A DNA stretch of 64,000 nucleotides, taken from contig NC_135251.1 of the NCBI RefSeq assembly GCF_964204865.1, forward strand, positions 11,222,001 to 11,286,000, read 5' to 3'. The translations under genes were made by a program, and so were the position numbers. The notes beneath the pieces were generated by a model. It had not been told where the DNA came from and made no database searches. It worked only from the letters and a program-made list of their open reading frames with translations. This DNA is from Styela clava (taxonomy: Eukaryota). Of this stretch, positions 10,854 to 28,747 are shown one piece after another (the first letter of the stretch is position 1; each line of letters begins with the position of its first letter).

Positions 10854-10984
10854 GTTTCGAATTTCTATACAGAAAAACTTCATCAGGGCATGATATGGAA
10901 AGGACACAAGTGGATATATATGTCCTATACAAGTCCTTTCCATATCATGCCATGATGAAGTTTTTTTGTATAGAAATTCGAAAC
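10854..10984. repeat. About 130-bp near-perfect palindrome
   Basis: About 52-bp arms GTTTCGAATTTCTATACA..GGAAAGGAC and GTCCTTTCC..TGTATAGAAATTCGAAAC (2 mismatches) around a short spacer. Confidence 0.9.
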
Positions 10985-11518
10985 GTCGGCAAATTACATC
11001 GTTTTGCTAACACCGGTTGTGCTTCATTTATTATCAACATGAATTTACCTGGTGGCAATCATGCACAATGCAGACCGAAGTCAAAATATTGTAAATGACT
11101 ATAGAACACCGGATAGAACTTCGAATTTAGTAGCAATGATTGGTGAGTGACCTCATAACGGCGGCTAACGTCATAACGGAGGTTTTTGATAGCACATAGT
11201 ACGGTACCTAATTGAAAACCTCGAAGTTAGGACGTTTAGTAATTTGACAGTAGGCCTATATATAATTTGAGAAAAGGTGGATCCTCGTCACAAAACTTTT
11301 GGATTGTTCATCCTTCTGCAAAGAGCATTAATTCGTGCAATCTTAACACTGTTGAGAAAGAATCGATGATTGAGCTTTCACATTGTCACAGTTTTGGATA
11401 TATCTTGAAAACGAATATCCCGAGCTCAGTGACAGAGCCATTTAATTACTGCTGGTTATTGTTACAACTTACCTCTATGAGAAAAGCTTTTCATTACTTA
11501 TCGATCTTAAGATCGGTA

Positions 11519-18638: not shown

Positions 18639-19543
18639 CTGTATACAAGACATCAGACGTATGTTTTACAATTTAATAAACCAGTGGTTCTCGAACGTTT
18701 TGAGCCGCGCCCCCTATTTTAGTATTTGTTAAGTCTCGCGTCCCAACTCAAAAATAACTAGCTAACAACCAGCTACAAATAGCAATTAGTAGGGTGAAAG
18801 TGTGTTTTATCCAAAAATCACGTTGAAAATACTAGGATAGAACGTAAATACCCAAAATAAAGAAATGTAAATATTCAAAATAGGGCGGGCAAGATCAAAT
18901 CTATTGAATATTTTTATTTTTCACGCCTCCTCAAAAATTGTCTACGCCCGCCCCTGGTGAGGCGGCTCGTAGATTTTGGACACGTAAACAAAGCGCTTTA
19001 GCTACTGTCGAAACCTAAAGTGTAAATACTTCGCCAAACACCGTATGGTAATTAATATCAAACTTATAAAGCACCTAATTAGGAGCCGATCACCAATTAA
19101 AGCAATTTTGCTTTGTATATTCCATAACCAAGCGGCTTTCATAACAAACATAATTTCTCGCAATCCTATCAAAAAGTCCAATTTGCGTACCAGCGGGTCA
19201 ACAACTTATTCGGATGTAACATGATCAAAAAAGTTATAAAAAGAATCGAGCAATTTTGGCGCCGTTTGGACAATACATGGTCCAGTTATTGCTCAAAATA
19301 TCCGAAGTTGTTAATTTTACGGTACTTGCCAACCAGCACAAATTTCACTTTCCAATTTTCAAATCCTATCACTCGTGTGCGCATGTTTGACAGAAATTAG
19401 GCGACCGAGGAAAATCTTCACGCGACCCATAGTTTGGGAATTTTTATTTCAAAATGGTTAATGGCGTAAAAGACCCTTTATGTTATTTGCATCATAAACT
19501 TATTAATAACAACAACAAAAAGAAGTTGGCGCCAAATATAAGT

Positions 19544-19688
19544 TATTCTATTCAATTAAAGAGTCCAGCTGCACACTAACACAAATGTATTTCTTTAACG
19601 TCTGAGGAAGTCTGACTCTGGTCGGACGAAACGTTACAGAAATACATTTGTGTTAGTGTGCAGCTGGACTCTTTAATTGAATAGAATA
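19544..19688 (+). ncRNA. Inverted repeat enclosing a minimal hammerhead-ribozyme core (Penelope-like-element type)
   Basis: 58-bp arms (19544-19601 and 19631-19688, one mismatch). The loop is CTGAGGA-A, then a 7-bp stem II GTCTGAC/TCTG/GTCGGAC, then GAAA, continuing CGTTA (palindromic AACGTT followed by an NUH triplet). Confidence 0.7.
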
Positions 19689-20028
19689 GTCATGTTTATT
19701 CCAGCTACAGTATCCTTGCAGTATACGCATACGGATCCACTAGCATAAAGGCGTAGAGAAAAGATAGGAAGTTAGTCTCGCGCAACCCAACTCAAATTTA
19801 AAACATAAGTTATCCGCTTTTTTAGCTTTTATTTGTAACTATCGTTTTTCAACACTTAAAAGATATTCCGTTATAAAATCAAACACGTTTGCACGATTTC
19901 CAATATATTCCAAGATTATACTTAGAATTAGAAAAATAAAATTAAGTGAGGTTGATAAAATTTTATTTACTCATTTGAACACTCGGATTAAATTATTTAT
20001 TTGAACTTTTTAAATGGATTTTCTTTTC

Positions 20029-23000
20029 TTAATAACAAGATATAGGAGATAGAGTGTATCTAGTTTTCTCGGACATCTCAACAGTTGGATCTCCCCCAAA
20101 GCATAACCTGATAAAACAGAGTATTATTTTATACTTAATGTATAAGGTGCTTTAATGGAATTAAATTTGAAAAACATGTTTGAATATTCTATGAAGGTTA
20201 ACTGAAGAAAATTGTTAATAGATTGTTCCTTTTAACACATTGATACGGACAGGCAGTCGAGTGCATATATATAAAAAAGTTGGTCGCTACAGAAGTATCC
20301 ATACCAATATGGAGGTAAATAATTTTGTTCGTCTATTTTACATCAAGTTGTGTAAAGGAACTGTCACCTATGGACAGAGGGATAATCACTTGGCCAACAC
20401 AGACAATCTTCAAACTCGTAACGCAACTAAAATGAGAAAAATTGGTACACATACTAAGGGAGTACGAAAAGTTGTATTTGTCTAGTTGAAATAGTATTCT
20501 TATATTAACGGCAGGGACACTCACAGCTGTTGGGTAGCTCCCACCCACACCGTCACGTAATCAATGGTGATGTAGTCTCTTCCGACATTTATTTCTTGTT
20601 GTTCCCATAACAATTTGACGTAATCGATCGTTCCTGGGTTGTAATCATAATATACGAGTGAACTATGATATCCTCCCGGACGAAGCTCGTAAACAGTGCT
20701 AAACCAATATGGCTGAATTTAGTTCAATCTGAATCTTTATAATTCAATTTTTGGCGCTCCAGAAGTGTGTGTAACAATATGGAGGTAACTAATTTTGTTC
20801 GCCTACTTTACATCAAGTTGTGTAAAGGGACTGAAACATATGGGCAGGGGGTATATTCAATTGTGAATTCAATTCAGTCCCCAAACTCGTAATAGAACTA
20901 AAAAAAGGAAAATCGGAATATAATTATGTCCTAACCCTAACCTGGTACACACACTATACGGGAATACCCTTTTTTATATCATATTTCACAAACTCGTGCA
21001 AAAGGCAGCACGAATTACATTACTTCATTTCCTACTAATCATTTCCAATCATTTCTTTGGACCATTTCTAAGACAGAAACGGAATCCTATCTATTATACA
21101 GCAATGTAGCAGTTATATTTAATGTTTATTGCATAAATTCCAGTGCATACGCAAATACCGCTCCTTCTTTATATATTCCTACAAAATCGCGTGTTTGGGG
21201 AATTGTAAGCAACATGTGAATTAAATTTTCGTAGTATTTAGTATATATTGATAAACTAAACAAATCTTTTCGTGGGAAAATGAAACCTGCGAAAACCTGG
21301 GCAAGCCGGATTAAGATTGCGAAAACCTGAAACCCTGGTTTCGAAATAATATATTCGAATTTGTACACACTCACAAATACTATTTCTACTTCATATAATT
21401 CTACAAAACCTCGCGTGTTTGAGTACCCATCTAATAAAATGTCATTCAAATATTCAAATCAATTTACTCTGCTCCGCCAATCTGTTGTTGTTCAGTATTG
21501 CCACTGGCACCGTACAAGGTGAGGTACAAGCTTCCATCTATACTTTTGCTGTTGGAACCGAGTCTCACTCCAACATCAGACATGTACTCTGTGTTTTAAC
21601 CAGGCAGCATTTTATTTAAGTATATGCGCTGATCTTAATGACTGATGGTTGATATGATACTAATTTGATTGAGTTATACAATCGATTTACCGTATCAAGA
21701 ATTAGTTATAATAAATATTTGCTGCAGCGCAAATATAACAATCTTTTATATCTCTTAAAATATAAGCATGGTATACAACTATTCTAATTTGAAAGCGGTA
21801 GCCGCGATTTACTTTGCTGTTAAGAATTAGTTATTCATGTTTCTGCAGCAGGAATATGACATTGCCAATTTGGATTAGCCGACTATAATTTTTGTTATTA
21901 TATTGGCGCTCCAGGAGTATGTGTATCAATACAGAGGTAACTAATTTTGTTCGCCTACTTCACATCAAGTTGTGTGAAGGGGCTGAAGTCCATGGGCAGG
22001 GGGCGTATTCACTTGGTTACACAAACAGTTCCCGAAATCGTAATAGAACTAAAATAAGGAAAATCGGAATAAAATTATGGCCTAACCCTAACTACGGAAG
22101 TAACAAATTTTGTCCTTATTTTAATGTGTGAAACCAAGTCGGAATTCAACTTACCACAAAACGGTGGAAGGGCATTGGTAGACAAATAGGTCTGCGCTTT
22201 GTATACTTGTGAAGCATATTTGTCAGCATGATATCCCATCTGAGGACAACCCTGAAATCGTGGTGGCGTTATAACAGAAAAATATTTTATTTTGAAGTGG
22301 ATTAAATGCATTCAATTAGTATGAATTCCATAATAATGTGAACAACGATTATATATCCAATCAAAACATGCATCTGAAACAAATAACTGGTTAACTATTC
22401 TCATACCCGACATGGACCGGTAACCGGATGAGACCCTTGTTTCACCGTGTAATTAAGCAGCCTTCCCTTTCTACTGGGATAAATAATAAAATCCTATCCA
22501 GTAACCAGTTCTATCCTAAAAAAATAAGTTTGAAATGAATGCGGCAATTATTATTCAGAAATTGTTACCAAAAATATAATCTAGAGAATTTATTCACAGC
22601 GTTCACATTGGGGTTCTTACACACAAAATATGTTATTGTCCATAATCATTCAAAAGTTGCCGTTTTTGATATTTTTTGTATGCGTATTAAACGAGTAACT
22701 TTCTATGGACTCGAGATCCTTTCAACTACTGTTGAAAAATTATGTTCAATCATCTACTCACAATCGAAAATTTCCTATAATAAGCAACACTATTACTAAG
22801 ACCTACCGTAGAGTCGCAATCCAAACATTTTCCTGCTAAGAACTCGTTATAACTAAGACAAGGATATGACTTGAAAGGACATGTTGTCGTGATCGATTCA
22901 GTGAAGAATTTCACAGCTCTGATATGATTACAGGCAACAAAATCTCGCGTTCCATCAGTAATCCCGTCGATACCAATAATTGTGGAGAGAGCATTCTTTA

Positions 23001-26000: not shown

Positions 26001-28747
26001 CTATCACTGTATTATCCCTCAAGTGGTAGACCTACGGTGTAGTAAGTAAAGAAAGTGGCGCCTCCCGTCTGGAAAGAAGTGAAATATATACTAATTTTTA
26101 GAAGTTGTTCAGAGCGATTTAGTATAAACTGTTTTTGGTGACATATACGAAGATTTATATGCTTTTTCCTACAAAAGGGCTCTGTACATGCATTTTTCCA
26201 GTTCCGCATTTGGTACCCAATTTATTACATCCTGGGTAAGGTGTTTGTGATTGATTGAGGCCCGAGTTATGTTAAAGACGATACCAAAGTAGATAGGTAC
26301 GTAACGTTTTAACCTCCAGGCTATCTTGCCCATACCATCGGTATGTATTAAAATTGAGCAAAAAATATGTTTTAGACAACTCTTAACTTAACGCTCAAAT
26401 TGTTATAATTTGAGTAGAGTAGACCGACCTTATTTGCAATGCTATTTGCAACGATATTGCGATAACTAAAACATACATTATTTTGGTATTTTATGAATGT
26501 TTTATAAGGTGTAGGCTACATATGGCGGTAGACCTCACGCTAAAATAGCACCGAAGAATTTTTATTCATAAATATATATATTATTTTAGGTTCCTATATT
26601 ATATTCCGCACTGGCACTTAAATTGCATACATAATTGAGTTTCATAAGTTTGCCTTGTGTATAAATATTTAATTCCTTCCAATACAATATACAAACATAA
26701 AATAACATTTCAAGAATATGAAAAAACTTACAGCAAGAAATGCGTTAGACATATCACTTAACCATGCAACATCTCCATTATCGACGTAACCATGCACTAT
26801 AAACCTGGTAAAACGACTTGGGTCGAAAGTTGACGAACTGGAATGATAAATGTTAAAAAGTTTTTCCAAGAGTTCACAGTGTAATATTTTGAATATAAAG
26901 CCATTATGTATATATTCGCATGATGATTAACATGAGCAAATAACTTGGGCAACTTTCAAATAAATCTAATATTAACTGGTATCAGCAATGAACGCGACTT
27001 TTTTATCGGAGAGCGGAAATGTTGTTAAGTTCGGCGTCAAAAGATGTTGTCTATGTTTTAACCAATCTCAAAACTTATATTACCACTGACCTATGCCTGG
27101 AGTTTTAATATCAACTTCCCACAAATACTGTTAATATGTACATGTTCAACTGGAGAAGTTTTCACCGAGCATTCCGATATCATAAAAGATTATTTCATGC
27201 AAATGAACAAATAAACACACTTCGAGAAACAAAGCAATAAATGTGATGAAAGAAATGATCATAGATTCGGTTTTAACACCAAAAAGAAAACAAAAATAAT
27301 GCCAGTCGTAACCAATTACAATCAAACCAAACTTTTCAGGACTATCGAATCAAGTTGACTACCAAAAGATACCGTGTCTCCCCGAAAATAAGACCTACCA
27401 GGAAAATAGTACCTAGACTGAATTTTAAAAATGATATTAATATAAGCCCTCCCCTTAAAATAAGAGTCCATAGTCAATAACGCAAATATTTTTTTCGACC
27501 TAGTCGATAGCAAAAAATCTCTCCTACACGTTTTACATGGTTAATAACTGTCACGGATTTCATCATTTTATCACCCTTAATATATATAATATTGGATATA
27601 CTTCATCCGGGTCCGTTTACTGTGAGACTCCGACCACCATCAGGTCGTGAGAAAAAAGAGCTTCCCGCCTCTTCTCCGGTCGCCGCGCTGGCGGCCGGTC
27701 GTGTTTTCCTGTGTTCGCTGTTTTAAGTGTTTTTAACTGTGAAGCTGCCTCAGAATAAACCACAAATCCGGAATCTGAGTCTTCTGATTCAATACACACG
27801 GTAGCTACATCTTTCTACCGTGACATAACCAATGTTTTGCAGTTATTTGGAATAAAAACGTTTTATTTATAAGTAAATGGATATCGTAAATCTCTACTTG
27901 TAATCTTGTTTTTGATAAATGAAAATATAAGACATCCCCCGAAAATAAGCCCTGGTGTTATTTTTCGGAAGAAAAATGAAATAAGACCCAGTCTTATTTT
28001 TGGGGAAACACGGCATATCCGATTCAACTCTATAAAGATCAAGTTTCAATTCAGTTTTGGTAAACTACTAGATCATACTACTTCAATTAACTTACGAGAT
28101 GGACAACATATCGTTATAGTAAATTTGTCTGTCGTATTGTTGTCTGGTATCCAAGTAAAAGTTGGTTTTGACTTTGGAAGGGTCGTCTGGTAGGATTTCC
28201 AGTGGCCGCTGTGGAGTATCGCCCCATGGAGGTTCGTTAGTGAAACATCCAAGATCACCATAACATACTGATTCGTATCCTTGATTTAGAACAGAAAGTC
28301 ATACGTGGTATAAAAGTGTTCTCGTGAATTCAAATAAAAACAAAACAAATTATGAATAGAAATATAACTTCGAAAAATGAGTAATAGCTTCCTTTAAATA
28401 CTGAGATTTTGAAATTAATTAATCTATTTGTAGCCAAGCGGAGAAAAGATATCTTCTACGCATCTTAAAAACAACAACAAAATCTAAAACAAGTTAGCAA
28501 AAACATATATAAAAAGATTTCTTGTACAACAAGAATTCACAGAAATCTATTTTCGTTTTGCAAATTCTGATATCCCGTGATAATATAATTGAACTAAGTT
28601 AAAATAGCCGATATTGAATACAAAAATCAAAAAAGGAATCAGTTTATTAATATATACATAAAAATGATAAAAATAATCACAACATCACTTACCCAATGCC
28701 GTCATCCATATTGACGATTGAAGAAGTAAACTCAGCAGTAGAAACAT
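20029..28747 (-). CDS. Pancreatic lipase-related protein (PNLIP/PNLIPRP family triacylglycerol lipase), 11 exons, 477 aa
   Basis: Exons: 28747-28693 (signal MFLLLSLLLQSSIWMTALG), 28279-28096 (VCYGDLGCFTNEPPWG..RPLEILP), 26837-26732 (TRFIVHGYVD), 25808-25683, 25170-25062 (CVGHSLGSH, nucleophile Ser), 24287-24094 (GLDPAGPYF, catalytic Asp; GHVDFWPNAG), 22995-22807 (lid, then GTRDFVACNH with catalytic His), 22251-22155 (GCPQMGYHAD), 21588-21468, 20698-20525, 20107-20029 (PLAT domain, TAA). Sum is 1434 nt and all phases are consistent. Confidence 0.94.
23384..23854. mobile_element. hAT-type MITE in a lipase intron
   Basis: TIRs CAGGCTTGT(T/C)TA, perfect 8-bp TSD CAAAATGA, subterminal ATGGGA/TCCCAT repeats; 471 bp. 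Confidence 0.9.
24790..25025. mobile_element. MITE family B copy
   Basis: Collinear with 46009-46244; TSD AAAAAAGA on both sides. Confidence 0.8.
25952..26551. mobile_element. Probable MITE with TIR GTGCTA.T.TAGCGTGAG
   Basis: Inverted ends GTGCTACTCTAGCGTGAG and CTCACGCTAAAATAGCAC; no clear TSD. Confidence 0.55.
27372..28013. mobile_element. Tc1/mariner-superfamily (pogo/Tc2-like) MITE
   Basis: TIRs CCGTGT(C/T)TCCCC(G/A)AAAATAAGAC, TA on the left flank (CA on the right), subterminal AATAAG(A/C)C repeats. Confidence 0.8.

Follow-up and report, generated by a model that had tools for sequence, protein, structure and literature searches.

A polymorphic hairpin insertion with a hammerhead core in Styela clava, probably left by the integration of a Penelope-like element

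What is a hammerhead ribozyme core doing inside a long hairpin between two convergent genes? The locus lies in a 64-kb stretch of Styela clava DNA (64,000 nucleotides, hereafter the window), for which a sequence-only reading had described a CTGAGGA(A) core, a 7-bp stem II with a G-U pair and a 58-bp near-perfect inverted repeat, all of which are found in the sequence. The answer that we arrive at, with a probability of about 0.88, is that the locus is a TSD-flanked, 5'-truncated insertion of an EN+ Penelope-like element (PLE), 254 bp in size, in which an inverted piece of the pLTR lies head to head with a pLTR-plus-tail piece, that the hairpin probably arose as a side product when the element integrated, and that its hammerhead is predicted to be inactive.

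The features of the locus are collected in Table 1. The inverted repeat (19544-19601 and 19631-19688) spans 58 nt with one mismatch and encloses a 29-nt loop, GAAACGTTA begins at 19628, after stem II, and the insert holds no ORF. The hammerhead core pattern matches once in the window vs. 0.02 matches expected, and the U.G pair in stem II of this copy is U-A in other family copies. Two details of the earlier description change: the stem III palindrome is present, although the palindrome proper is ACGU and not the AACGUU that had been given, and by hammerhead numbering the predicted cut falls between GUU and A (19635/19636), one base earlier than the cleavage after UUA at 19636 that had been suggested.

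Table 1. Features of the insertion and its surroundings in window coordinates; element coordinates (q) are counted from q1 = window position 19600.
Feature	Position	Strand	Remarks
Left TSD, 13 bp	19534..19546	+	Last 3 nt (TAT) also belong to the inverted arm's outer end; present once in the empty allele
Inverted arm	19544..19601	-	Element positions q32-q89; one substitution; outer end (19544 side) is the family's short 3' end; overlaps the forward arm by 2 nt (GT)
Forward arm, 5'-truncated pLTR plus tail	19600..19800	+	Terminates at the long 3' end (q201)
Hammerhead core	19602..19609	+	C3-A9 (CUGAGGA) at 19602-08, extra unpaired A at 19609
Stem II, 7 bp	19610..19627	+	19610-16/19621-27; G10.1-C11.1, one U.G pair, UCUG loop
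G12-A13-A14, palindrome and H17	19628..19635	+	Hammerhead numbering; palindromic A15.1-C-G-U16.1 at 19631-34; H17 is U19635
Stem I, 3' strand (ACAG)	19636..19639	+	Partner UUGU in the family, only GU in the window copy
Tail, about 112 nt	19689..19800	+	Between the short and long 3' ends
Right TSD, 13 bp	19801..19813	+	One mismatch vs. the left copy
Collectin-like neighbour, stop codon	18636..18638	+	AATAAA at 18675-80
Lipase neighbour, likely stop codon	20029..20031	-	Minus-strand AATAAA at 19996-20001, 19962-67 and 19828-33

The family to which the insert belongs can be identified directly. A genome DNA search with the window unit gave at least 110 matches from the best 40 of 2239 candidates, most of them covering q1-q201 at 98-100% identity, and the genome holds 112 exact copies of the 32-nt core (control 0) and 193 copies of a 25-mer from the right arm. 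The unit (19600-19800) is identical to the ORF-bearing copy L064 at 199/201 bases, with 2 differences, and positions 905-3721 of L064 hold an intact ORF of 938 aa with an RVT_1 domain (E 2.7e-10) together with a GIY-YIG domain at the C terminus (E 4.8e-5), both above Pfam cut-offs. This ORF is flanked by direct pLTR repeats of 373 bp, 99.7% identical and each with the hammerhead core, and in the full element the tail comes to within about 35 nt of where the ORF starts. The family protein carries a CX2-5CxxC linker between RT and EN (motif at aa 805), which a passage of PMC8557442 assigns to the Neptune/Nematis clades. A genome-wide search for copies beside GIY-YIG/RT ORFs had been suggested, and such copies exist, L064 among them, as does a tandem array (L006/L033). 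The genome copies, the RT/GIY-YIG ORF and the pLTRs bear out the proposed PLE origin, the minimal type I hammerhead (in the family copies) and the inverted terminal segment; the opposite case of a single-copy sequence with no PLE association is contradicted by the exact cores and the 938-aa RT plus GIY-YIG ORF. Four further loci (L161, L162, L166 and L167) belong to a sister subfamily: their hammerhead is laid out alike, and their ORF shares 58-63% identity with the family protein. An old fragment, 68% identical to the ORF region of the family, lies at 27143-27330 of the window.

The insertion is recent and polymorphic. In a contig of run X1, 5 letters separate 19544 from 19818, which means that the insert is absent, and in both X1 and X2 the left flank with a single 13-mer stands directly before 19818, a result that amounts to one empty haplotype and not a frequency, as the two runs belong to one study and may represent the assembled individual. 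Run X1 also carries the filled left junction with no differences. The 13-bp near-direct repeat that had been put forward as a possible TSD is directly seen to be one, there being only one 13-mer in the empty haplotype. Contigs of runs X5 and X6, considered as RNA, were of low depth, that of X6 extending into an intron, and were left out; the raw reads of X17 fell short of the unique flanks.

The empty haplotype bears on whether the locus could be a co-opted regulatory device, in which a locked ribozyme or a source of dsRNA controls the collectin-like and lipase genes. The hairpin RNA folds with −98.1 kcal/mol (z −19), is very stable on both strands in RNA folding and stands between convergent genes, at the distances reported earlier (collectin-like stop 906 bp off, lipase stop 341 bp from the right arm), so that read-through could yield dsRNA, which we regard as possible. 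Against a regulatory role, the insert is missing from another haplotype, is 99% identical to its source element, lies past the candidate poly(A) signals of the two genes and has a broken stem I, and we consider such a role very unlikely. The convergent genes look incidental because the insert is missing from another haplotype and because AATAAA hexamers, whose frequency is near chance (12 vs. 8.8), lie between each neighbour's stop and the insert. The collectin-like and lipase identities come from Pfam exon matches, with collagen and lipase above cut-off and a weak C-type lectin match (E 0.007). Two diverged copies about 470 bp apart (20280-20445 and 20750-20916, 83% identical over 102 nt) lie in the lipase gene region.

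The loss of stem I in the window copy can be read directly. Family copies form this stem as UUGU/ACAG (5' strand ...CTGCTTGT), of which the window copy keeps GT alone, that is, 2 bp, and A15.1-U17 are paired in the window hairpin with an unpaired probability of at most 0.08. The hammerhead of the window copy is predicted to be dead because stem I is lost and the strand is taken up in the 58-bp helix. Deleting the left arm would not bring the fold back, as the inversion junction has cost stem I its 5' strand. The notion of a locked ribozyme as a functional device is thus not supported, and an opposite arm over the cleavage site is routine, being found in 22/35 head-to-head copies, while 2/35 are also without stem I like the window copy.

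Folding and Rfam checks were of little use in judging the ribozyme. Folding of an intact family copy gives a stem I probability below 0.01 and does not favour the hammerhead fold. Dimer co-folding of three sequences produced that fold in none of them and is uninformative. The Infernal/Rfam check that had been recommended returned no hammerhead match at the locus, either at the gathering score or at E up to 10, and this miss says nothing, as the intact family copy is missed too; weak Rfam miRNA-hairpin matches, far below gathering scores, were set aside as generic hairpin hits. Among 75 related cores, stem I pairs 1-3 survive in 68, 62 and 66, respectively, and the fourth pair in 35/75, while a second PLE family has different but paired bases at the four stem I positions (24, 24, 24 and 23 of 27). 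Changes in stem II within the family are mostly one-sided and give little true covariation, and the 4-bp stem I with different bases in the second family lends some support to the structure across families. This second family, which shares the genome, has a GUC triplet, a UGCC/GGCA stem I and a tail of about 30 nt, and GIY-YIG or RT homology adjoins 6 of its loci.

The shape of the insert is also that of its relatives. The 3' ends of 139 arms at least 90% identical form two clusters, 51 arms ending at q80-94 and 62 at q195-209, which we call the short and long ends, and the tail between them is about 112 nt in the window's family as against about 30 nt in the second. After removal of 5 duplicates from 40 simple head-to-head pairs, 30 of the 35 unique pairs show one short and one long end and the other five have one unclassified end, with none short-short or long-long. 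The same combination is seen in 15/18 pairs found by the core pattern alone and in 12/14 new loci found without core or tail (TSDs in 12/14), so that the 35 pairs and the 14 new loci of this family pooled give 42/49, again with 0 short-short and 0 long-long; the second family gives 28/29 with 1 short-short (TSDs in 23/29), and both families together 70/78 with 1 short-short and 0 long-long, all of these counts being samples from the matches listed and not a whole-genome census. TSDs of at least 9 bp (mode 12-13) flank 27/35 pairs vs. 30/1190 mismatched-flank controls. The hairpin is the usual insertion form of this family. In one region (L032 and L064, C6:20744886-20752471) a 3.5-kb inverted copy, truncated at its 5' end, stands ahead of a full-length element whose ORF is intact, and this arrangement obeys the short/long rule. 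A literature search of titles, abstract openings and passages, with subscription journals outside its coverage, found no report of a strict one-short/one-long rule, of a tail above 100 nt or of genomic truncation at the hammerhead cut.

The hairpin might instead be a non-autonomous element or retrozyme spreading by itself. Retrozymes derived from pLTRs are described in a passage of the preprint 10.64898/2026.07.22.740005, and a retrozyme-like 360-bp tandem array, which contains three intact hammerheads and extends from the pLTR through the tail into the ORF start, is present at L033:3570-4662 (also L006 and L007). The window copy is nevertheless a monomer, with one family core in the window and a junction unique among the loci fetched, and every hairpin has its own junction, the repeated junctions sharing flanks as segmental duplicates do; self-spreading is accordingly a highly improbable account of the locus. 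Identical insertions with common flanks (L109-L113, L119, L120 and L030), which suggest that parts of C16 and C19 have undergone segmental or tandem duplication, had been collapsed before counting.

Returning to integration by the parent PLE, we propose a mechanism in which the GIY-YIG domain would nick both target strands about 12-13 nt apart and each 3'-OH would prime the copying of the leader RNA into cDNA, starting near q88 for one strand and near q201 for the other. The two cDNAs would run toward the 5' end of the RNA, where a hot spot near q-16 (51/112 arm 5' starts fall at q-20 to q-12) would be the likely transcription start; in the window copy they would have halted early, at q32 and q1, and the arms would have been joined via 2-nt microhomology in the ACGU/stem I region. 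Nicking, dual priming and joining taken jointly seem to us reasonably probable, with dual priming suggested by the end statistics. From the position of the pile-up at q-16 we infer a transcript start, and the promoter of Penelope is placed inside the pLTR in a passage of PMC2377424; an intron 3' splice site was also considered for q-16 and rejected, as there is no AG at that position. The RNA template was likely uncleaved, since both window arms cross the cleavage site. PMC11167929 reports that both strands are cut and extended, that the tail is delimited by two internal RT start sites and that the template is mainly uncleaved RNA, without, in the passages considered, assigning one start site to each arm, and our dual-priming proposal extends that account.

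The same element could instead have produced the inversion through an antisense or cDNA template on which synthesis primed itself or folded back, the tail being set by endonuclease resolution. Passages of PMC3846280 prefer self-priming on an antisense template and passages of PMC8557442 derive the tail from endonuclease resolution, and palindromic junctions are common, that of the window lying on ACGT. Fold-back alone, however, predicts neither the differing outer ends (the 70/78 short-plus-long pairs) nor the independent 5' ends of the two arms, and both ends match the two RT start sites in PMC11167929, so we regard this route as unlikely, though it deserves some weight.

Short PLE hairpins may record the whole of integration, with each target strand primed at a fixed RNA site and the arm junctions marking the 5' ends of the template. 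In both families some 50 nt lie between the hammerhead cut and the short end downstream of it, and the long end is family-specific, 112 vs. about 30 nt further. In the second family, 6 of the 40 arms truncated within the hammerhead have their first base precisely at the predicted cut (p 1.9e-4 under a uniform null that is generous, as truncation favours short products, and with one duplicate pair left among the 40 arms), and 17/40 fall in a 6-nt window chosen after the data had been seen. The last-fetched set of this family has 1/10 exact (p 0.19) and 5/10 in the 6-nt window (p 0.005). No such footprint appears in the window's own family: 0/112 arm starts lie at q35-39 in a set biased to core-bearing arms, and an exact count of 3/31 becomes 2/30 once one palindrome artefact is removed, with 4/30 in the 6-nt window (p 0.43). 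The truncation peak of the second family is a hint of in-vivo hammerhead cleavage. Our tentative overall picture, to which we give somewhat less than an even chance, is that the family with the weak stem and GUU triplet uses mostly uncleaved RNA and that the cut peak of the second family, whose stem I is stronger, would be evidence that the hammerheads of PLEs are active in vivo and that RNA they have cut is retrotransposed. The window itself contains a head-to-head hairpin of the second family at 10854-11066 (inverted arm 10854-10921, other arm 10933-11066 or longer), in whose forward core C3 is changed. At L249:1500-1617, a single case, a short second-family insert with a short target duplication is nested in an old hammerhead of the first family, immediately past its cleavage position.

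The locus itself is minor, one polymorphic stub, predicted to be dead, among more than 100, and more likely a commonplace side product of insertion than a switch for genes. The formation of inverted PLE ends and the in-vivo cutting of the hammerheads are stated as open in passages of PMC8557442 and PMC11167929, the latter noting no RNA reads that end at the hammerhead cut, and the pair of families in this genome, one of which includes copies with an intact ORF, with their mapped ends and differing tails and footprints, are ready substrates for both questions.

Compared with known systems, as they appear in passages of the papers cited, the insertion agrees with those of EN+ PLEs such as Pen2a of Adineta vaga (PMC3846280; PMC8557442) in having a head-to-head inverted 5'-truncated copy, a one-sided tail and a TSD, and a parent with a single RT plus C-terminal GIY-YIG ORF. 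The TSDs are mostly 12-13 bp in the Styela clava family vs. 8-10 bp in Pen2a, and its tail of about 112 nt departs from the 30-40 nt in print for EN+ PLEs, the second family having the usual length. The hammerhead of the family matches the minimal type I hammerheads that PMC4209133 describes for metazoan PLEs, with a 7-bp helix II, a predicted 4-bp helix I, an extra nucleotide between 9 and 10.1, G10.1-C11.1, palindromic 15.2-16.2 and a location in the pLTR in sense to the ORF, whereas the window copy differs from them in a helix I reduced to 2 bp and in the pairing of its core to the inverted arm. The element Poseidon PAc of Anolis (PMC11167929) is similar in its two internal RT start sites bounding the tail, its cut and extended strands and its uncleaved template, but there the ORF starts within stem II instead of about 200 nt past the hammerhead, and our family protein has the CX2-5CxxC linker of Neptune/Nematis (PMC8557442). 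Finally, the insert shares with non-LTR retrozymes (10.64898/2026.07.22.740005) that it is non-coding, hammerhead-bearing and pLTR-derived, yet those are head-to-tail tandems of intact hammerheads, whereas this insert consists of one inverted monomer whose stem I is broken.
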